Under the pieces are notes generated by a model. The model ran no database searches. It saw only the letters and a list, made by a program, of their open reading frames with translations, and had not been told where the DNA came from. 64,000 nucleotides of DNA, taken from contig CAZVDL010000002.1 in assembly GCA_964626365.1 (NCBI GenBank), forward strand, positions 19,966 through 83,965, written 5' to 3'. Positions 4,785 through 59,922 of the stretch are shown piece by piece. Numbering within the stretch: the stretch's first letter is position 1; each line of letters starts with the position of its first letter. Made by a program: the position numbers and the translations under genes. The stretch comes from an uncultured Nitrososphaerota archaeon (lineage in GTDB: Archaea > Thermoproteota > Methanomethylicia > Nezhaarchaeales > B40-G2).

Positions 4785-5561
4785 GTGGTCAAGGAGGAGA
4801 AGAGAATCAAGGACGAGGACCTATTCAAGACCGTGGAGGAGGTATTTGACAAGGCCACCTTGGAGGCCCTCTACTACCTCATCAATAGACACATCATAGA
4901 CGTTATGTACGGCGCGGTGGCCGCGGGGAAGGAATCTAAGCTCTACCTGGCCTTAAACCCTCAAGAGGAGCTCATCGCCGTCAAGATATATCTAACCTCG
5001 AGCAGCGAGTTTAGGAAGGGCATAATTAAGTACATCGACGGCGACCCCCGGTTTAAGCACGTTAAGAGGGACACGAGGTCGTTGATCTATACGTGGGCTC
5101 AGAAGGAGTTCAAGAACTTAGAGAGGGCCTACGAAGCGGGGGTAAGGGTCCCCAAGCCTATAGCCGTGTACAGGAACGTATTGGTCATGGAGTTCATAGG
5201 TGATGAAGCCCCAGCCCCCATATTGAAGGAGGTGGAGCTTAAAGACCCTCGTGGAGCCCTAGAGACCCTAATGATCTACGTCCACCGCTTATATCATAAG
5301 GCTAAGCTGGTCCATGGCGATATAAGCGAGTACAACGTCATGGTTAAGGGCGACGAGCTAGTGCTCTTCGACTTTGGACAGGCTATGTTAACCTCCCACC
5401 CCCTGGCCGTGGAGCTCCTAAGAAGGGACGTAGAGAACTTGTTGACCTACTTCCATAAGCTTGGGGAGCTTAAGTCCAAGCCTAACGTGGAGGAGGCCTT
5501 AAAGGTGGTGCTCAAACCTGAAGAAGAGGCTGTGAGAGGCTACGTTAAGCGTCTACCTTGA
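4785..5561 (+). CDS. rio1: RIO-type serine/threonine protein kinase
   Basis: It has the RIO kinase catalytic loop LVHGDISEYNVMV and the metal-binding FDFGQA motif, at 258 aa. Confidence 0.8.
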   Translation: MVKEEKRIKDEDLFKTVEEVFDKATLEALYYLINRHIIDVMYGAVAAGKESKLYLALNPQEELIAVKIYLTSSSEFRKGIIKYIDGDPRFKHVKRDTRSLIYTWAQKEFKNLERAYEAGVRVPKPIAVYRNVLVMEFIGDEAPAPILKEVELKDPRGALETLMIYVHRLYHKAKLVHGDISEYNVMVKGDELVLFDFGQAMLTSHPLAVELLRRDVENLLTYFHKLGELKSKPNVEEALKVVLKPEEEAVRGYVKRLP

Positions 5562-6709: not shown

Positions 6710-8002
6710 TTGGCCTCACTCCTCATTAAGCGCTGCTCAGTTATCTTGACACAGGACGAGCGCCGTAGAGTATTGAAGAGGTCTTCAATATACATCGAGG
6801 ACGGAGTGATAGCGGGCGTAGGTAAAGTGGAGTGCGAAGCTGAGACGGTGATCGACGGGGCTGGCAAGATGGCGCTCCCAGCCTTCATTAATGCTCATAC
6901 TCACGCTGCTATGACCCTACTTAGAGGGTACGCCGACGACCTACCCCTAAAACAATGGCTAGAGCAGAAAATATGGCCACTGGAGAGGAAGTTAACCGAG
7001 TATCATTGCTATTGGGGGGCCCTATTAGCCTGCATAGAGATGGCTAAGGCGGGCTGTAGTTGCTTCCTAGACATGTATTTCTACCCGGAGGCTACCGCTG
7101 AGGCTGCCGTCAAGGTAGGGCTTAAAGCCGTGATCTCCTACGGCATGTTTGACTTCAACGACCCCTCCCTAACGGAGCAGCAGCTTGAGGGGGCTAGACG
7201 TTTCCTCGGTAAGGCCTCAGAGCTGAGGATGAAAGGAGTTGAGCCAGCGCTAGGTCCACATGCCCCCTATACGTGTAGCGACCGGTTACTTATGGAGGCT
7301 GCTGAGCTAGCTAGGAGGAACAGGGTCCTGCTACATATACACCTAGCTGAGACGGTTGAGGAGGTGGATGAGTTTAAGAGGCGTTACGGTAGGACCGAGA
7401 TCGAACATCTTGATAGGCTGGGTGTACTTGGACCAGACGTAGTAGCGGCGCATTGTGTTCACCTATCTAGGAGGGATGTAAGGCTCTTAGCTCGTAGAGG
7501 AGTTAAGGTGGTACATTGCCCTGTAAGCAACTTAAAACTAGGCTCAGGCATAGCACCCGTAACCGAGCTACTTAAAGCCAAGGTTACAGTGGCCCTAGGG
7601 ACTGATGGAGCGGCTAGCAACAATTCACTGAGCATGCTGGGGGCTATCAAGCTAGCAGCGCTTCTACAAAAGGCCTTATACAGAGACCCGTCAGCTATCT
7701 CGGCTCAACAGGTACTCGACATGGCTACACTGGGAGGCGCTCTCTCTCTTAACCTACGCTCAGGTAAGTTGGCTGAAGGTTATCGAGGCGACGTAGTCCT
7801 CCTCGACCTTAACAGGCCTAGCTACACCCCTCTCTTCTCGCCTACATCGCATGTCGTGTACGCCTCCGAAGGGACGGAGGCGTACACGCTGGTGGTCGAC
7901 GGCCGCGTCATAGTTAGTAGGGGTAAGGTGGTGTCAATCGATGAAAGATCGGTTATACGTGAGGCCTCTAGGGCGGCTAGGGACCTAGTGGCCCGCCGTT
8001 AA
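6710..8002 (+). CDS. mtaD: Amidohydrolase of the MTA/SAH deaminase (MtaD/DadD) family
   Basis: It has the metal-binding HxH motif (NAHTHAAMT) and the HIHLAET and GTDGAASNN motifs of the ATZ/TRZ-type deaminase family. It sits adjacent to ahcY. Confidence 0.7.
6888..6985. repeat. 98-bp segment 100 % identical (inverted) to 10879..10976 in the paralogous amidohydrolase gene
   Basis: This is a direct comparison of the sequence with the reverse complement of 10879..10976. Confidence 0.85.
7486..7560. repeat. 75-bp segment 100 % identical (inverted) to 10280..10354; a further 31-bp identical patch at 7417..7447 vs 10394..10424
   Basis: This is a direct sequence comparison. Confidence 0.85.
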
Positions 8003-9810: not shown

Positions 9811-11160
9811 TTAGCGTTTAGAGGTCTTTTCCCCAAGCCTTCTCAACAGCTTCTCCTTCTCCTTTTCAGCCTCGACTAACAGGTCCTCTACCTTCATCCT
9901 CTTAAACTCCCCATCCTCAACTATCAACTCCCCGTCCACCAATACATGCCTCACATCCAGTGACCTCGCTGCATAGACAAGGTGGCTTACCTCGTCGTAT
10001 AAGGGGGTTAAGTGGGGCTTCCTAAGCTCCACGGCCACTAAGTCGGCTTTCATCCCGGGCTTGATCTTACCGGTTGTTTGCCCTAAGCCTAGGGCTTCAG
10101 CTCCTCCAGCTGTAGCCATCTCCAAGGCTGTCCACGCTGAAATAGAGGTAGGGTCTCTCGAGACGCCTTTATGTAGAAGGGCCGCCAGCTTGACGGTCTC
10201 GAGTAAGTCTAGTAGGTTGTTGCTACAGGCGCTATCAGTTCCCAGGGCCACGGTCACGCCACTGCTCAAAAGCCTCGGCACGGGTGCTATGCCTGAGCCT
10301 AGTTTTAAGTTGCTTACAGGGCAATGTACCACCTTAACTCCTCTACGAGCTAAGACCTCTACGTCTCCATCTGTTAGCCAGACGCAATGTGCTGCTACTA
10401 CGTCTGGTCCAAGTACACCCAGCCTATCAAGGTACACTGCCACCCCTCCACGTACATCCACCTTAAACGCCTCCTCCACCTTGAAGGCCTCGTCCTCAGT
10501 TTCAGCTAGATGTATATGCCATAGCAGTCTATCGCCTAGCTTAGAGCTCAGCTCGTCGGTTAGCAGCCTCAACTCCTTAAGGTACTCAGGGCCCACCGTG
10601 TAGGGGGCGTGAGGGTCTATGGTCACCTTAACCCTGCCGCCGTAGGAACCATGCCACCTCCTTACCAAGTCCTCGATGGCCTTTAAGTCCTCTTCTCTAC
10701 GCCACTCAAAGCACACGTGTCCCACGAACCCCCTCAGCCCTGCCTCGGCTATCGCCTTAGCCTCGTTGTAGTCGGGGAAGTAGTGGTACATGGTGTTTAT
10801 CGTGGTAACCCCCATCAATGCCGATTCTATGCAGGCTAGTAGAGCCCCCACGTAGATGGACCTGCCGTCCATGCAGGCCTCCAGTGGCCATATTTTCTGC
10901 TCTAGCCATTGTTTTAGGGGTAGGTCGTCGGCGTACCCTCTAAGTAGGGTCATAGCAGCGTGAGTATGAGCATTAACCAGCCCAGGGATTACTGTGCAGG
11001 TGGAGGCGTCAAGTACCTCGTAGCCCCTATACTTCGGAGCCAGCTCCCTTCTAGGACCCACGTCGACTATCTTGTCCTCCTCAATTATTATCAGCGCATC
11101 TTTAATGATCCTGCCTCCGTCCATTGTGACCGCGGAACCGGCTTTAATAGCCAGGTCCAC
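9811..11160 (-). CDS. Second MtaD-like amidohydrolase (paralog of 6710..8002, inverted orientation)
   Basis: It has the same HxH, HIHLAET and GTD motifs. Patches of 98, 75 and 31 bp are 100 % identical at nucleotide level to the paralog (see repeat features). Confidence 0.7.
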   Translation of the reverse strand: MDLAIKAGSAVTMDGGRIIKDALIIIEEDKIVDVGPRRELAPKYRGYEVLDASTCTVIPGLVNAHTHAAMTLLRGYADDLPLKQWLEQKIWPLEACMDGRSIYVGALLACIESALMGVTTINTMYHYFPDYNEAKAIAEAGLRGFVGHVCFEWRREEDLKAIEDLVRRWHGSYGGRVKVTIDPHAPYTVGPEYLKELRLLTDELSSKLGDRLLWHIHLAETEDEAFKVEEAFKVDVRGGVAVYLDRLGVLGPDVVAAHCVWLTDGDVEVLARRGVKVVHCPVSNLKLGSGIAPVPRLLSSGVTVALGTDSACSNNLLDLLETVKLAALLHKGVSRDPTSISAWTALEMATAGGAEALGLGQTTGKIKPGMKADLVAVELRKPHLTPLYDEVSHLVYAARSLDVRHVLVDGELIVEDGEFKRMKVEDLLVEAEKEKEKLLRRLGEKTSKR

Positions 11161-26869: not shown

Positions 26870-26968
26870 TGCGGGGGGTGGGATTTGAACCCACGCCGGC
26901 CTTCGCCAACGGATACCCCAAGCCTGTTCTTGAGTCCGCCCCCTTGGACCTGGCTCGGGAACCCCCGC
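26870..26968 (-). tRNA. tRNA-Leu (anticodon CAA) with canonical ~14-nt intron after position 37 and long variable arm
   Basis: The reverse complement gives GCGGGGG...GCGGA-CUCAAG[intron]A-UCCGU, a 14-nt variable arm, GUGGG-UUCAAAU-CCCAC, CCCCCGC and discriminator A. Confidence 0.7.
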
Positions 26969-28384: not shown

Positions 28385-28475
28385 GGCGGCCGTGGTCTAG
28401 CCTGGTCCAGGACACAGAGCGCTGAGCGTGTAGGCCTTCCACGCCTGTTACCCGGGTTCGAATCCCGGCGGCCGC
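28385..28475 (+). tRNA. tRNA-Gly (anticodon UCC) with a 16-nt non-canonical intron inside the 5' strand of the anticodon stem
   Basis: The exons give GCGGCCG UG GUCU AGCCUGGUCCA GGAC A CAG[AGCGCUGAGCGUGUAG]GC CUUCCAC GCCUG UUAC CCGGG UUCGAAU CCCGG CGGCCGC A. The acceptor and T-arm are typical of archaeal tRNA-Gly. Confidence 0.7.
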
Positions 28476-28486
28476 ACTTCCTCCCT

Positions 28487-28972: not shown

Positions 28973-29098
28973 GCCCCGGTAGTATAGCCACGCCCGCGCA
29001 GGGCGCTAGAACGGTCAAGTATACCGGCCTTTCGAGCCGGCGACCCGGGTTCAAAACAGGCGAGGTTAACCTCGCCTGTGAGACTCCCGGCCGGGGCA
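28973..29098 (+). tRNA. tRNA-Glu (anticodon UUC) with two non-canonical introns (22 nt in D-loop, 29 nt in T-loop)
   Basis: The exons are nearly identical to the intronless tRNA-Glu(CUC) at 52463..52537. The D-loop is AGCC[ACGCCCGCGCAGGGCGCUAGAA]CGGUCAA. The anticodon arm is CCGGC-CUUUCGA-GCCGG. The T-loop is UUCAAA[ACAGGCGAGGUUAACCUCGCCUGUGAGAC]U. The acceptor is GCCCCGG/CCGGGGC plus A. TATAAAAA lies ~20 bp upstream. Confidence 0.7.
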
Positions 29099-46397: not shown

Positions 46398-46649
46398 GTG
46401 AAACTGGAGGAATACTTAGAGAGATGGTTTCAGGATGAGTGTTTAGAGGTCGGCTTATACTTAGCTATGGCTAAGAAAGCCGACGAGGAAGGGTGCCCTG
46501 AGATAGCCGCTCTCTTTAGGAAGATCGCTCGGGATGAAGCACGGCATGCCGCGATAGCCATAGAGCTGGCTGGGAAAGTAGTCTCAACGAAAGAGAACCT
46601 AGAGAGGATGATTGAAGGTGAAGGAAAAAAGCCTTTGAAATCAGGATGA
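46398..46649 (+). CDS. Small ferritin-like/rubrerythrin-family fragment-sized protein
   Basis: It has one E...DEARH diiron-like half-site and is only 83 aa. Confidence 0.35.
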   Translation: MKLEEYLERWFQDECLEVGLYLAMAKKADEEGCPEIAALFRKIARDEARHAAIAIELAGKVVSTKENLERMIEGEGKKPLKSG

Positions 46650-46787
46650 AAGAGGCTGAGCACCACGAGGACCCGCTAGGTCTTACTTCTATGCAACTGC
46701 TAAAGATGAAGAAGGACGGCGGAAGGCTCTAATGAGCATCTACGAAAAAATACTTTAAGAAGTGGACTTCGTGTGACCCCTTCTTTT

Positions 46788-46841
46788 TATGGAGGCTACT
46801 TGGAAGTACGCTAGCCTTAACGCCTTGGCCAGGGGTAGGTG
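46788..46841. repeat. 54-bp direct repeat, copy 1 (duplicate of an internal trkH segment, copy 2 at 47954..48007)
   Basis: There is an exact 54/54 nt match between 46788..46841 and 47954..48007. Confidence 0.85.
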
Positions 46842-46994
46842 AGATCGTTAACGACGTCTCGTGACCACATAATTCTGCTGGAGGCGTGGACTTAGGATAG
46901 AAGGGGCCTTATAAGGCCTGTAACTAAACGGATAGGCGTGATTCAGGGGTTAAGCGTGTCTGCTCAACCATCGTGGCGAAGCGCTTAAGATAGC

Positions 46995-47408
46995 TTACAT
47001 GAAGGCTCTAAGCCACTTGTAAGCTATAAGCACGAAGAGTATTAAGAAACCCAACGTGACTATTAACGCTGGTAGTGAACCTTGGTTGGACGTGAAGCCT
47101 ATTATGAGGGGGAAGGGCCATATGAACACCGCTGAGCCAGAACTTACCTGTGTCTCAAGCAAGCCGGGTAAGGCTGTTATTAATATCATCCCTGATATTA
47201 TCATTGCTAGCCCTAAGGCCAGCATTATCTTCGTCATTAGGGGCGGCGTGAACGTAGAGGTTATCTGTTCTCTTCTAACGAGGGAGGTCTCGTAGCACGG
47301 CTTACATAACCAGGTGGCTGGGTCAAAGCATTCGGGGCAGACACGCCTAGAACAGCGTCTACATACGTAGGCGGCATCCTCTCTTCCACATACCTCACAA
47401 CGAGCCAT
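46995..47408 (-). CDS. Zinc-ribbon (CEVCG...CRRCSRRVCPEC...CKPC) membrane protein
   Basis: A 137-aa ORF with an N-terminal Cys-rich zinc ribbon and two C-terminal TM helices. It lies between the two 54-bp repeat copies. Confidence 0.4.
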   Translation of the reverse strand: MARCEVCGREDAAYVCRRCSRRVCPECFDPATWLCKPCYETSLVRREQITSTFTPPLMTKIMLALGLAMIISGMILITALPGLLETQVSSGSAVFIWPFPLIIGFTSNQGSLPALIVTLGFLILFVLIAYKWLRAFM

Positions 47409-47449
47409 CTAAATCACTAGCCGCGGGAACCTAAGAAAAGCTTTACCGA

Positions 47450-48895
47450 TTATAGAGCTCTTTCCCAGGCTTGAGTCGTTAAAAGCGATAAAACAGGAGT
47501 TAACTCCAGCCTCCCCATCCACATACACGCTATCAAGGTCAGCTTCGAAGCAGCGTCCAGCTTAAGGAGGTCGATGAAGGCTGGGCCCACTCCGCCCTCG
47601 GCAGAGAGGGCGGCGGACAAAGCCGAGGTGAAGCTTAGGTTCTGGTGAGTTAGAATTAAGGCAGCGGCTGCGGCGATAGCGAGGTAGAGCGCGAAGAAGC
47701 AGGCTATCCTCAATAGGTCCTCCTTCTCGATGACCCTACCTCCGACCTTCAGCGAGGTTACAGCTTCTCGTGGAAGTAACGTCTTTAAAGTCTCTAACCG
47801 GACGAGCTTAGCTAGTATTACAGCTCTAGCCACCTTAACTCCACCTGCCGTGGAGCAGAGACAGCCGCCCACGAGCATTAGGCACATCAATATCCACTTT
47901 GAGGCCTCTGGGAGGAGGTTTACGTCGAAGCTAGTGTAGCCGGTTGTCGTGGATATGGAGGCTACTTGGAAGTACGCTAGCCTTAACGCCTTGGCCAGGG
48001 GTAGGTGCCCATTAAATACTAGGTCAAGGGTGACCATAATCGTCGAGGCGGCTAAGATAGCCAGCATGGCCCTAAGCTCGATGTTACTCAATGCCTCTTT
48101 GACTCTCCCCCTAAGTACCATTAGGTGGACGTGGAAGTTAATAGCGCCGATGACCATGAAGACAGCTAGTACGGCCTCCACTGCTGAGCTATGAAAAGCC
48201 TCTATGTTTAAGCTACGCGTCGAGAAGCCGCCTGTAGCTAGAGCTGTAAAGGCGTGGCATATGGCGTCGAAGGAGCTCAAGCCTACCATAACCAGCAGTA
48301 AGGCGCATAGCGCTGTATAGGCTACGTAGATAAGCCAGATGTCTCTAACGGTGTCCCAGGCCTTAACCGTCAACCTCTCCTCTCTAGCTTCAGCTACATA
48401 TAGCCTCCAGACCCCTACCCCCTTGGGGGCTATAAGCAGAATAAAGAACAGCACGACCCCTCCTCCCCCAAGCCACTGGGTTAAGGCCCTCCAGAACAAG
48501 ATCGACCTAGGTAAGTTCTCAAGCTTGGGGATCAGCGTCATACCTGTAGCCGTGAATCCAGACATGGCCTCAAAGTAAGAGTCCAACGGACCCAGAACTC
48601 CTCCCAGCGTAAAGGGTAGAGCGCCTATGCCAGCCACAAGCAGCCAGCTAAGCGCTGAGAAAATGAGGGCTTGGGGTACACTAATCTCCTCGGCTAGAGG
48701 CCACCTACGTGAAGCCACGTAGCCTAAAAGAGCTAGCGTTACGGAGGGGACCATGAAGGACTTAAGCGCAACTATGTTTTCACCATAATAGACGCCCACC
48801 ATGGCTGGGACTAGTAAGATAAGACCTAGGAGTAAACATAGCCTGGAGAATAGACCCATTAAGACGGATCTTAGGGGCTTCCTGCCTTTACCCAC
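47450..48895 (-). CDS. trkH: TrkH/KtrB-family potassium transporter membrane subunit
   Basis: It has multiple M-P-M repeats with selectivity-filter-like GFSTR, TTTGYTS and STAGGVK motifs. Confidence 0.8.
   Translation of the reverse strand: MGKGRKPLRSVLMGLFSRLCLLLGLILLVPAMVGVYYGENIVALKSFMVPSVTLALLGYVASRRWPLAEEISVPQALIFSALSWLLVAGIGALPFTLGGVLGPLDSYFEAMSGFTATGMTLIPKLENLPRSILFWRALTQWLGGGGVVLFFILLIAPKGVGVWRLYVAEAREERLTVKAWDTVRDIWLIYVAYTALCALLLVMVGLSSFDAICHAFTALATGGFSTRSLNIEAFHSSAVEAVLAVFMVIGAINFHVHLMVLRGRVKEALSNIELRAMLAILAASTIMVTLDLVFNGHLPLAKALRLAYFQVASISTTTGYTSFDVNLLPEASKWILMCLMLVGGCLCSTAGGVKVARAVILAKLVRLETLKTLLPREAVTSLKVGGRVIEKEDLLRIACFFALYLAIAAAAALILTHQNLSFTSALSAALSAEGGVGPAFIDLLKLDAASKLTLIACMWMGRLELTPVLSLLTTQAWERAL
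47954..48007. repeat. 54-bp direct repeat, copy 2 (within trkH coding sequence)
   Basis: It is identical to 46788..46841 and encodes ...HLPLAKALRLAYFQVASI of TrkH on the minus strand. Confidence 0.85.
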
Positions 48896-52462: not shown

Positions 52463-52537
52463 TGCCCCCGCCGGGATTTGAACCCGGGCCGCCGGCTCGA
52501 GAGGCCGGTATACTTAACCGGGCTATACTACGGGGGC
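52463..52537 (-). tRNA. tRNA-Glu (anticodon CUC), no intron
   Basis: The reverse complement gives GCCCCCG UA GUAU AGCCCGGUUAA GUAU A CCGGC CUCUCGA GCCGG CGGC CCGGG UUCAAAU CCCGG CGGGGGC A. Confidence 0.8.
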
Positions 52538-55967: not shown

Positions 55968-56684
55968 TCACTCTCTCCCTCTCGTAGAGAGTATTCGTAG
56001 CCACGGATTGTCCTTAAAGAAGGAGGGCAGCTCACTTGGCGGGGCCTCTTCTCTTAGCGGGGTAGCCTCCACCATGGGTTTATGCTCTCTTCTCATCTCC
56101 GACAGCATGCTTTCAAGGGACGCGATCTTATCCAGTATGGAGGTTAATGATGAGAGCAGCCTCCTTAAGCCGTCCTCTAAGTTGGCTCTAAGCTCCGCGA
56201 CCTCACCCTCAAGCCTATTGACCCTGAAGGCCAGCTCCTCATCTACGGGCTTAGCCAGCGTTTCATGCCCTGTTTCTAGCCTTCTTACCTTCTCCTCTAG
56301 AGCGCTAAGTTGTCTTCTCAGCTCCTCGAGCCCCCTTAAGTTGAGGGTCATTCTTCTCTTAGCAGGGGTGGCTTCGAGGACCTGGCCATCCACTATTAAC
56401 ATGCCCACTCCAACCTCGTGGAGTATAGAGGCGTCGACGACGGTGGCTATAGGCTTACTGACAGCTACGTAGGCTAAATCGTAGCCGTCTGTGGATGAAG
56501 CCCTTAACAGTCTTCTTAAAGCCTCTCCACGGGCTTTTAGGGCCTCTTCGTCGATTAAGTAGACAGCCACCCTTCCGCTAGGCCCTTTAAAGCTTAAGCT
56601 GGGACCCTGAGGAGGTGGGGGCTCCTCCACGTATCCCTTAAGTTGAAAGTATCTTCTGACGGCTTCAGCTATCGCTCTAGTCAT
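55968..56684 (-). CDS. Coiled-coil protein immediately downstream of crenactin (candidate arcadin-2-like crenactin partner)
   Basis: An N-terminal alpha/beta segment is followed by a long heptad-repeat region. It overlaps the crenactin start by 8 nt. The arcadin-2 assignment is positional inference only. Confidence 0.4.
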   Translation of the reverse strand: MTRAIAEAVRRYFQLKGYVEEPPPPQGPSLSFKGPSGRVAVYLIDEEALKARGEALRRLLRASSTDGYDLAYVAVSKPIATVVDASILHEVGVGMLIVDGQVLEATPAKRRMTLNLRGLEELRRQLSALEEKVRRLETGHETLAKPVDEELAFRVNRLEGEVAELRANLEDGLRRLLSSLTSILDKIASLESMLSEMRREHKPMVEATPLREEAPPSELPSFFKDNPWLRILSTRGRE

Positions 56685-57948
56685 GAATCCTTAGCCATCC
56701 CTCCATCCTATCCCAAGACCAGGAGTAGTCTTCAGGTACCGCGTAGCCGTAGATAATGCAGCCCCTCCACACGCTGAACTTAGGCTCAGGGGCTACGTCT
56801 ACGCTTACGCCCTCAATGCCTTTTTCGCTTAGTAACAGCTTTAATTTAGTGGCTGAGTCGACTGCTAACTCCCTGTACTGTTGAGGGGCTTTCCAGTGGA
56901 AGTTACCTCCGGAGAGCAGGATTTTTCCGTAGAGGTATGGTTGTAGCTCCACGGGGCACTTCTCTACAGCCTCTAGGACGGCCTCGCCTAGGTCCAGCAT
57001 GCCCCTGAATAACACGTCGCCAACCTTGACGTCCTTGGGCTTAGGCATACCTCGCTTGAAATAGCTCTCGAAGATTTCATGTTTAGGGTTGAACACGTAC
57101 TCGCCGATCAAGAATCTGGCCCAGGACTCCTTGCCTAGGTCTATCTCGATGCGGGTCCCAGGCACCCTATACCTAGCCCTGAAGGATTCGGGGTCGCTTT
57201 TTGCCCTTCTAACCGCTTCATCCAGGTTGCGTGGAATTAGCCCTAGCTCCTCCTTCACCTTCCTAACGAGGGCCTCCTCCTTGGCTAAATCGCCGTAGCC
57301 AGCGTCGTATAGAATTTGGCTTGTCAACATATCGGCGTCGCTCCCCCCTCTATTTAGCACGACCATGGCTGTCTTAATCGGGTATCTTGATATGGGACAT
57401 ACCTGCGTATTGCCGTGTCCGCTCTCTATGACTACGCAGGTCGGCACCTTGTGGGCGATGGCTACTGCTAATGGCTGAGGTATTATGGTCACTGCCTTCA
57501 CTAGTCCAGTCTCTTCAGCTATCCTTACGTGTATGTCGAAGATCTTCTCATACATGTAGCGTGGAGCTATGGCTGAGAGGGCGGCGCACACATAGAACCC
57601 CTTAAACTCTGCCTCGCTGCGCCTAAACATTTCAAGCCCATACTTGGTTATCTCGTAAATGACCTTCCACGCCTTCTCGTCGTCCTTCCCCACGATGCCG
57701 TTCCTCATCGGGTAAACCATACGCGAAGCTAGTTCCTCCCTTGACCCCAAGTAGAGAGCTAGGTCCCTTCCGACGACCACCTCTTTAGCTGTACCCATCA
57801 ACCTATACATTATTGATGAGGTGTCGGGGAAGTATCCTCGGTTCTCTATCACCTCGGGCCTCTCGCCTAACGTTATGGGCCCGAACTTATAATCGCTAGT
57901 CCCGTAATCCTCCCCAAAGGTGTACTTACGCTTATAAGCCTCACTCAA
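56677..57948 (-). CDS. Crenactin (archaeal actin homolog of Thermoproteales)
   Basis: It has an actin-fold phosphate-2 motif VIESGHGNTQVCPI (compare actin DSGDGVTHNVPI) and an adenosine motif ILLSGGNFHWKAPQ (compare actin LSGGTTM). At 423 aa its size matches crenactin. Confidence 0.7.
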   Translation of the reverse strand: MSEAYKRKYTFGEDYGTSDYKFGPITLGERPEVIENRGYFPDTSSIMYRLMGTAKEVVVGRDLALYLGSREELASRMVYPMRNGIVGKDDEKAWKVIYEITKYGLEMFRRSEAEFKGFYVCAALSAIAPRYMYEKIFDIHVRIAEETGLVKAVTIIPQPLAVAIAHKVPTCVVIESGHGNTQVCPISRYPIKTAMVVLNRGGSDADMLTSQILYDAGYGDLAKEEALVRKVKEELGLIPRNLDEAVRRAKSDPESFRARYRVPGTRIEIDLGKESWARFLIGEYVFNPKHEIFESYFKRGMPKPKDVKVGDVLFRGMLDLGEAVLEAVEKCPVELQPYLYGKILLSGGNFHWKAPQQYRELAVDSATKLKLLLSEKGIEGVSVDVAPEPKFSVWRGCIIYGYAVPEDYSWSWDRMEGWLRIHD

Positions 57949-59770: not shown

Positions 59771-59837
59771 TATTTAACTACCTTAAGTCTTCACGTTACA
59801 ACAAACTTGTCTTTAAACTTAACTCTAGTAGTTATGG

Positions 59838-59922
59838 TGCGGGGGGTGGGATTTGAACCCACGAAGGCCTACGCCACGAGGTCCTGAACCTCGCGCCTTT
59901 GACCTGGCTCGGCCACCCCCGC
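59838..59922 (-). tRNA. tRNA-Leu (anticodon CAG), long variable arm, no intron
   Basis: The reverse complement gives GCGGGGG...CGAGG UUCAGGA CCUCG, a 14-nt variable arm, GUGGG UUCAAAU CCCAC CCCCCGC A. Confidence 0.8.

Follow-up and report, generated by a model that had tools for sequence, protein, structure and literature searches.

A segment in the middle of the trkH gene recurs exactly about 1.1 kb away, in a spacer outside the gene. The question raised by this locus is how the second copy arose: by site-specific integration of an element, or by local copying of chromosomal DNA, and whether the copy has any role in its present place. The window, i.e., the whole 64-kb stretch of DNA analysed here, contains the following features around the two copies.

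46398..46758, plus strand: rubrerythrin-like pseudogene in three frames (46398-46622, 46625-46681 and 46684-46758), with the ancestral stop TAA at 46756-46758
46759..46787, no strand: left junction of the spacer copy, 29 nt from the pseudogene stop, ending in a T5 run (46784-46788) as read from the sequence
46788..46841, minus strand: spacer copy, an exact ectopic copy judged to be derived, in the spacer between two convergent genes and in no ORF
46842..46994, no strand: spacer c, 153 bp from the stop of the Zn-ribbon gene to the spacer copy, with no Rfam match
46995..47408, minus strand: gene for a Zn-ribbon (8 Cys) membrane protein of 137 aa, with weak zf-B_box/zf-HIT matches
47450..48895, minus strand: trkH, intact, 481 aa, Pfam PF02386 (TrkH) at E = 1e-54
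47954..48007, minus strand: trkH copy, judged to be the original segment, codons 297-314, translated as HLPLAKALRLAYFQVASI, directly upstream of the TTTGY filter motif

The repeat pair and its presence in independent assemblies

The sequence TATGGAGGCTACTTGGAAGTACGCTAGCCTTAACGCCTTGGCCAGGGGTAGGTG is found at 46788-46841 and 47954-48007 in direct orientation, identical at 54 of 54 positions and 1166 bp apart from start to start. A sequence-only reading had reported this exact recurrence, and our recount gave the same coordinates. The 54-mer has two matches in the window, even when three mismatches are tolerated, and matches appeared in none of 100 shuffle controls. The pair is the sole exact direct repeat longer than 26 bp within the 64 kb. 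In register, the flanks are 20–24% identical on both sides against a background of 25%, indicating that both edges of the repeat are sharp.

The same reading placed the second copy in non-coding DNA beyond the 3' end of trkH and a 137-aa ORF between the copies. Both statements agree with our results: the spacer copy is in no ORF, lacks a start codon when read in the frame of the trkH copy, and the 137-aa ORF is real, with weak zinc-finger Pfam matches. Degraded trkH homology around the upstream copy, which that reading suggested looking for, was seen neither in the flank identity nor in the translations on either side, where nothing trkH-like was found.

Two copies also agree with what is seen in seven other assemblies. 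Both copies are contained in L081 (JGI), L083 (MEGAHIT k141) and L084 (SPAdes), which are near-identical contigs with a few SNPs elsewhere; L085 spans the trkH copy only. The k141 and SPAdes contigs run unbroken through both copies. Three Logan contigs, presumably built at k = 31, end exactly 30 nt inside the repeat, which is the behaviour expected of a true two-copy repeat. All assemblies represent one near-clonal population, and strain SNPs are absent between 44656 and 48457, so their pattern is uninformative here.

An assembly artefact might be suspected, as the source is evidently an assembly of an uncultured organism and 54 is near the common de Bruijn k of 55. Such an origin is hardly credible. 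The arrangement is the same across assemblers and samples with SNP differences (JGI, MEGAHIT k141 and SPAdes), the k-mers of 141 cover the whole copy together with unique flanks, and the Logan contigs show every expected arm entering the repeat.

Source copy, interval and insertion site

The trkH copy corresponds to residues 297-314 of the 481 residues of TrkH. This stretch is colinear and conserved (RLAxFQxxSI) in the alignment with 14 TrkH homologues, and therefore the trkH copy is the original and the intergenic copy is derived. Based on this conservation, we count the direction of copying, from trkH to the spacer, as shown. The closest TrkH homologues are 52–59% identical, and the parts of the protein before and after the repeated segment behave alike. 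P0002 matches the N part at 59.5% identity and the C part at 62.4%. The same nearest relatives and similar identity on either side of the segment indicate that trkH is not a mosaic, and a mosaic gene with a foreign 3' part was rejected on these grounds. P0244 is a V-start version of the same TrkH. Among species-representative genomes, the best TrkH match is 46% identical and lacks usable synteny; in L086, whose TrkH is 59% identical, the neighbourhood differs. At about 90 other trkH loci (930 kb), no ectopic copy of an internal trkH segment was found, which points to a single event rather than a system linked to trkH.

The DNA between the two copies can be compared with that of L082, the only close relative (about 72% nucleotide identity), which also joins the 3' end of trkH to the Zn-ribbon gene. 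The shared adjacency indicates that the interval is ancestral chromosome. The homology to L082 ends at the stop codon of the Zn-ribbon gene, with none downstream, and GC content is continuous through the region. We count the native origin of the interval as shown. The Zn-ribbon homologue of L082 is 70–73% identical, with dN/dS of 0.22. Another homologue, in L094, is 47% identical and lies between PCMT and flavodiiron-like genes, at a locus without trkH. Judged from the substitution ratio, the Zn-ribbon gene is a functional chromosomal gene under purifying selection. A mobile module composed of a trkH fragment and the Zn-ribbon gene was also considered and rejected: convincing flanking repeats are missing in both L082 and L094, and L094 has no trkH.

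The ancestral stop of the pseudogene is 29 nt away from the spacer copy on one side, and the stop of the Zn-ribbon gene is 153 nt away on the other. The annotated 83-aa ORF (46398-46649) is the first part of the rubrerythrin-like pseudogene, and its Pfam match spans only positions 1-64 of the 137 in the profile. The rubrerythrin homologues listed are 89–1338 aa long, and nearly all of them are at least 113 aa, the 83-aa ORF itself excepted. The alignment of P0257 to this region crosses a frame shift (E = 5e-7), and the 118-aa product, once reconstructed, can be aligned from end to end with homologues of 119–130 aa. A truncation of the 83-aa ORF by a deletion ending at the spacer copy is thus refuted; the gene is full-length, frameshifted, and has its natural stop 29 nt before the copy. 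On the other flank, the closest relatives found via DUF166 are 54–61% identical and show no synteny beyond DUF166. The spacer c contains a perfect palindrome, GGCCTTATAAGGCC, at 46905-46918.

Integration or local duplication

The sequence-only reading considered site-specific integration with reference to SSV-type integrases and att cores of 40–60 bp. The size comparison is fair: a passage of PMC6563490, citing She et al. (2002), gives crenarchaeal att sites as 29–69 bp with a median of 45. Integration into protein genes, in their 3'-distal parts, is also known for archaeal elements (PMC6563490). The two copies could accordingly be relic attL and attR of an integration into trkH, where the element supplied a replacement 3' part of trkH and subsequently shed both integrase and cargo, or where a 1.1-kb non-autonomous cassette was mobilised in trans. 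Like the attL/attR of archaeal integrated elements (tyrosine recombinase; pNOB8- and SSV-type), the copies are direct, exact and sharp-edged repeats of about 50 bp, inside the range quoted in that passage, and one of them is in a gene which stays intact across it. The bounded DNA, however, does not fit. It is ancestral, without integrase, cargo or foreign composition, and no integrase or mobile-element gene is present between the copies (46842-47953) or in any scanned ORF. Pfam scans of 29 ORFs of the window revealed no integrase, transposase, recombinase or reverse transcriptase; the ORFs scanned at 37.7-64 kb, together with selected ORFs at 6.7-31 kb, are all cellular genes. The trkH parts inside and outside the interval belong to the same lineage, the trkH 3' end was already next to the Zn-ribbon gene before the split from L082, and the latter gene is cellular and conserved. 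The block in L082 has no convincing flanking repeats. There is no displaced 3' fragment of trkH beyond the spacer copy, and the empty site would encode a TrkH without its last 167 residues. The target would be in the middle of the gene (codons 297-314 of 481), and not in a 3'-distal part or a tRNA gene.

The 36-mer core of the repeat has no match in viral or metagenome contig collections, of which the metagenome set does not include the source samples and is hence a weak negative, and the interval has no match in phage and plasmid collections. The SSV analogy is misapplied. As described in a passage of PMC7253208, SSV-type integration leaves the integrase gene, not the target gene, in two parts at the borders of the element, whereas the repeat here overlaps trkH and no split integrase gene is seen. 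With neither a recombinase nor a viral or plasmid match, and with a native interval, integration finds no support; we regard a relic of this kind as improbable, and already largely refuted.

Two other types of mobile DNA can be compared. Target-site duplications of transposons and IS elements are usually 2–15 bp and come with terminal inverted repeats and a transposase. Here the repeat is 54 bp, and neither terminal inverted repeats at 46842/47953 nor a transposase is present. The template and variable repeats of diversity-generating retroelements resemble this pair in that an intergenic copy of a nearby coding segment exists. Unlike them, the two copies here are identical, without adenine-specific differences, are only 54 bp long, and correspond to a conserved pore region rather than a C-terminal variable domain; no reverse transcriptase is found among the scanned ORFs.

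On balance, the spacer copy is probably a neutral, non-coding scar of a local chromosomal duplication, either a templated insertion or a trimmed tandem duplication, and not a product of site-specific recombination. We infer the copying mechanism, the instability and the neutrality, the last of which is assumed. The sequence-only reading had offered a duplication or deletion relic of trkH as another option; this part is consistent with all that was seen and near to the best explanation.

Two routes can be imagined. In one, a 3' end in the convergent spacer would switch template to a site 1.1 kb away during replication or break repair, 54 nt would be copied in direct orientation, and the end would switch back, giving a templated insertion in one step. 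This resembles template switching as in FoSTeS/MMBIR and filler DNA: an exact short copy from a template on the same strand about 1.1 kb (1,166 bp) away is placed at a site unrelated to its source, its junctions sharp and its flanks without homology. The copy here is longer than most of those described, since templated insertions are usually shorter than 54 nt, and we know of none described in archaea. In the other route, 46842-48007 would have been duplicated in tandem (1,166 bp), followed by a deletion which spared only the last 54 bp of one copy. As in bacterial gene amplification with a remodelling deletion, the arrangement of copy, interval and copy is equal to 1.05 units of a 1,166-bp tandem repeat, and a duplication join at 46841|46842 with a deletion join at 46787|46788 would explain both sharp edges. 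This route differs from that model in leaving no surviving remnant of the second unit: the flanks of the spacer copy are at background identity, and a search for residual homology gave a single weak 44-nt match (E = 0.21). It also requires two events, which counts against it.

Short-tract copying occurs in this genome: diverged paralogues share further exact patches of short length, one of them 98 nt at 100% identity. We counted the decaying state of the DNA around the insertion, beside a pseudogene with frame shifts, in favour of the neutral scar, which would probably persist in such slack DNA. The length of 54 bp and the perfect identity, squarely in the crenarchaeal att range quoted in the passage of PMC6563490, speak against a scar.

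Possible roles of the spacer copy and meaning

A functional element at the RNA level is conceivable and would compete with neutrality. The spacer copy might be antisense to the trkH mRNA in trans (54 nt, perfect) through plus-strand read-through of the pseudogene. Otherwise it might be a sense decoy, in a long 3' UTR of the Zn-ribbon/trkH transcript, for a factor binding the trkH segment. The copy begins directly after the T5 run behind the pseudogene, and a TTTAAG/A-rich element is seen about 30 nt upstream of it. In a compact archaeal genome, the 236 nt of convergent spacer between the ancestral stop of the pseudogene and that of the Zn-ribbon gene seem a long stretch. When folded, the minus-strand RNA of 46650-46994 is somewhat more stable than its shuffled versions (z = -3.4), an observation that also speaks against neutrality. 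In Sulfolobus, antisense control by paralogue-derived RNAs has reportedly been found. The two copies are perfectly identical in every covering assembly, but the population is near-clonal and this identity carries little weight. The fold of the plus strand is not significant (z = -1.1), the 54-mer alone has no notable structure, and a search of the spacer against Rfam for structured RNA families gave no match. Among the relatives in our data, none has the copy, so that no conservation can be demonstrated. An RNA element of either kind is therefore unlikely. It is still less likely, to the point of being quite speculative, that the dead rubrerythrin-like gene has been recruited to supply both promoter and body of a regulatory RNA, with read-through of the T5 run into the copy adding 54 nt perfectly antisense to the pore-helix region of the trkH mRNA. 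If true, K+ uptake would be coupled to the signal of the old rubrerythrin promoter, and a single step, an ectopic micro-duplication, would have created a regulator.

Direct repeats of 54 bp at a distance of 1.1 kb are a competent substrate for deletion by homologous recombination. A recombination event joining the two copies would remove 1,166 bp, ending TrkH after residue 314 with the 10-aa extension KRRGHTKSTS, and the Zn-ribbon gene would be lost. The pair could then be imagined as a switch, in which deletion by RadA or by slippage, reversible or irreversible, shuts off TrkH and the Zn-ribbon protein in a fraction of the population. The clean truncation of the predicted product, TrkH(1-314)+KRRGHTKSTS, would suit such a switch, but a deletion, being irreversible, cannot act as one. 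In addition, a near-identical TrkH of about 324 aa was absent from the results of the protein search. The contigs looked up by the flanking 83-aa ORF, outside the pair, all have the standard arrangement or end in the repeat, with no deletion allele among them, and the long-k contigs traverse both copies unbroken. The unbroken contigs suggest that the k141 and SPAdes populations have few or no deletion and circle junctions. A role as a recombination switch is very improbable.

Only transcription of the intergenic copy, together with an action on the trkH mRNA, would give the locus wider interest. If the neutral scar of a local duplication is the right explanation, the value of the pair is limited to two things: it is a clean natural case of ectopic duplication of a short segment, from an uncultured archaeon of hyperthermophile type, and it is a warning. 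A direct repeat that is exact, has att-like length and overlaps a gene is insufficient to call an integrated element, and the content and ancestry of the bounded DNA need to be checked before integration is called. For the archaeon itself, the repeat pair would carry an inherent risk of deletion for trkH and the adjacent gene.

The 54-bp repeat in and beside trkH

The 54-mer TATGGAGGCTACTTGGAAGTACGCTAGCCTTAACGCCTTGGCCAGGGGTAGGTG is found at 46788–46841 and 47954–48007 in direct orientation, with a spacing of 1,166 bp. The sequence-only reading described it as an exact duplication of an internal trkH segment, and on recount 54 of 54 positions are identical. These are the only two matches in the window even at three or fewer mismatches, and shuffles of the window yield none at all. 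No other exact direct repeat in the 64 kb exceeds 26 bp. Beyond the 54-mer, the in-register flank identity is 20–24% on each side, which is the level of random pairs (25 ± 4.5%), indicating that both edges are sharp. The features concerned are:

46398–46758 (+), rubrerythrin-like pseudogene in three successive frames (46398–46622, 46625–46681 and 46684–46758)
46788–46841, spacer copy of the 54-mer, between two convergent genes and outside every ORF
46995–47408 (−), Zn-ribbon gene, 137 aa, with eight N-terminal Cys, then hydrophobic segments; weak B-box/HIT matches
47450–48895 (−), trkH, 481 aa, Pfam TrkH E = 1e-54
56677–57948 (−), actin-family (crenactin-like) gene, 423 aa, near Nop5 and fibrillarin genes

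The repeat is genuine DNA carried by several assemblies. Both copies are present in three near-identical contigs, L081 (JGI), L083 (MEGAHIT k141) and L084 (SPAdes), with 99.93–99.96% identity to the window and 6–8 SNPs, all outside the repeat. Another contig, L085, is 100% identical and spans the trkH copy only. Logan contigs are assembled with k = 31. Two of them (L100 and L101) end exactly 30 nt into the spacer copy, and a third (L104, 1,172 bp) corresponds to the interval between the copies plus 30 nt of the repeat on either end. At this k-mer size, a true two-copy repeat leaves such ends in the assembly graph, and they come from two further sequencing runs; the arrangement of the copies is settled by long-k contigs and not by these short-k ones. 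It is extremely improbable that the duplication is an assembly artefact, as the k = 141 assembly (L083) bridges each copy together with unique DNA at both sides.

The copy at 47954–48007 encodes TrkH residues 297–314, HLPLAKALRLAYFQVASI. In the alignment with 14 homologues, this stretch (RLAxFQxxSI) is colinear and conserved, directly N-terminal of the TTTGY filter motif. Judged from this conservation, trkH holds the original and the spacer copy is derived from it. As the sequence-only reading stated, the second copy lies in a non-coding stretch. The degraded trkH homology it proposed to look for around that copy is absent: no TrkH-like translation flanks it on either side, and flank identity is random.

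A mosaic trkH with a foreign 3′ part was also considered. The parts N- and C-terminal of the repeat share their nearest relatives at similar identity (59.5% and 62.4% to the homologue P0002), and this similarity persists down the list of TrkH relatives; the 3′ part is thus not a foreign replacement. Among ~90 other trkH loci (930 kb), no exact repeat of at least 30 bp has a copy inside trkH. The ectopic copy is a singleton event, not a trkH-associated system.

A 59-bp exact direct repeat (2332–2390 and 4858–4916) brackets the whole trkH in a bacterial MAG contig, JASFOL010000147.1. This contig is 4.9 kb long and the second copy lies 12 bp short of its end. Possible explanations are a repeat element and an effect of the contig end or circularisation.

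The interval and the landing site

The interval between the copies (46842–47953) consists of the last 167 trkH codons, the Zn-ribbon gene and a 153-bp spacer. In some public annotations this Zn-ribbon gene has a product of 80 aa (P0122) that is missing the zinc-ribbon N-terminus. The 137-aa ORF of the sequence-only reading is supported by full-length homologues in L082, a metagenome contig of a relative (JGI 3300020567), and in contig L094. The dN/dS of 0.22 against L082 indicates purifying selection on this gene. The L094 homologue (47% identity) lies between PCMT methyltransferase and flavodiiron-like genes, with no trkH nearby. A perfect 14-nt palindrome, GGCCTTATAAGGCC, is seen at 46905–46918 between the Zn-ribbon stop and the spacer copy, and may form a hairpin or serve as a binding site for a protein.

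L082 shows ~72% nucleotide identity to the window. The homology starts within the trkH 3′ end and ceases at the Zn-ribbon stop codon. Most of trkH is gone from this relative; a decayed 3′ fragment (1389–1694, roughly codons 386–458, with frameshifts and stops) is left directly upstream of the intact Zn-ribbon homologue. The block is flanked by CdhD and HypA genes and, downstream, by an AAA_15/AAA_21 ATPase gene. The trkH 3′ end and the Zn-ribbon gene were therefore already neighbours before the two lineages split.

On the other side of the spacer copy, the rubrerythrin-like locus is represented in public gene calls by a protein of just its first 83 aa, an ORF whose Pfam match is confined to the first half of the model. 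In an exhaustive HMMER search, its homologues (the ORF itself excluded) are listed at 89–1338 aa, nearly all at least 113 aa. Aligned to the window DNA, the closest of these run through the three frames in succession (cross-frame match to P0257, E = 5e-7), and the 118-aa product, once reconstructed, aligns over its full length with homologues of 119–130 aa. These alignments show that the gene is a full-length frameshifted pseudogene. The frame shifts near a GGAAAAAAG run at ~46625 and again close to 46684. The second ExxH metal ligand has been lost. A deletion ending at the spacer copy and truncating the 83-aa ORF is refuted by the full-length frameshifted gene and its natural stop at 46756–46758. 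The spacer copy starts 29 nt past this stop, directly following a T5 run, and lies 153 nt past the Zn-ribbon stop. The DNA here, next to a defunct gene, is presumably free of constraint.

The nearest TrkH relatives are from Nezhaarchaeota and Thermoprotei MAGs. Together with the crenactin-like gene, they indicate that the window is from an uncultured Thermoproteota-type archaeon. Three tRNA-like sequences lie at 26870–26968, ~29007–29055 and 28386–28477. ARAGORN missed two of them, one 89–92% like tRNA-Leu (59835–59922) and one matching tRNA-Glu (52463–52537) at 90% in inverted orientation. The third was predicted, with an unusual anticodon of 4 nt. All three are probably intron-containing archaeal tRNA genes.

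Origin and consequence of the spacer copy

The sequence-only reading proposed site-specific integration, with SSV-type integrases as the analogy. The length of 54 bp is within the range of crenarchaeal att sites, 29–69 bp, and protein genes are known integration targets (PMC6563490). Even so, relic att sites are an unlikely explanation, as the content and ancestry tests of the bounded DNA all went against them. Pfam scans covered all ORFs of 140 aa or more between 37.7 kb and the window end, except three overlapping alternative-frame ORFs, together with a selection of ORFs in the 6.7–31 kb region. No integrase, transposase or reverse transcriptase came up; the functions were all cellular, including a Mo-oxidoreductase complex, a TorD-like chaperone, a TFB-like protein, DUF166, MgtE, a KaiC-like ATPase, crenactin, Nop5 and fibrillarin. 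Viral contigs lack the repeat core, and phage and plasmid records contain no match to the interval, which is native. Conceptual removal of the interval fuses TrkH 1–314 to KRRGHTKSTS, which is implausible as the ancestral form of the gene, and the DNA past the spacer copy contains no displaced 3′ fragment of trkH. In the SSV type, the integrase gene itself is split and not the target gene (PMC7253208), whereas here the gene overlapping the repeat is trkH. The interval shows no sign of mobility and is unlikely to be mobile DNA.

A role at the RNA level, for example as a putative antisense element to trkH, is improbable. A transcript reading through from the pseudogene would be perfectly complementary to trkH mRNA over 54 nt, and the minus-strand RNA of the spacer has a somewhat more stable fold than its shuffled versions (z = −3.4); against this, the spacer has no Rfam match and the plus-strand fold is unremarkable. 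The pair is most unlikely to be a recombination switch. No allele with the interval deleted was seen: the protein search returned no near-identical TrkH of ~324 aa, contigs carrying the outside-flank ORF show only the standard arrangement or end inside the repeat, and long-k contigs run through both copies.

The spacer copy is probably the scar of a local duplication, by template switch or trimmed tandem duplication. The alternative in the sequence-only reading, a relic of duplication or deletion involving trkH, agrees with all the evidence gathered. In a single step, template switching in replication or repair could have copied 54 nt into the spacer from a template 1.1 kb distant. Otherwise, in two steps, 1,166 bp (46842–48007) would have been duplicated in tandem and a deletion would have trimmed the duplicated unit to its last 54 bp, accounting for one edge as the duplication join and the other as the deletion join. 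Other short exact tracts are seen between diverged paralogues in the same genome, indicating that short-tract copying occurs here. An S-adenosylhomocysteine hydrolase gene separates two amidohydrolase paralogues of opposite orientation, 6710–8002 (+) and 9811–11160 (−). Between these paralogues, a 98-nt patch is 100% identical (6888–6985/10879–10976) and a 152-nt patch 88% identical (7409–7560/10280–10431), which looks like recent short-patch gene conversion.

On this reading, the spacer copy is an ordinary type of mutation, captured in a clean state. Its expected consequence is a deletion hazard: recombination between the copies would leave a truncated TrkH and eliminate the Zn-ribbon gene.
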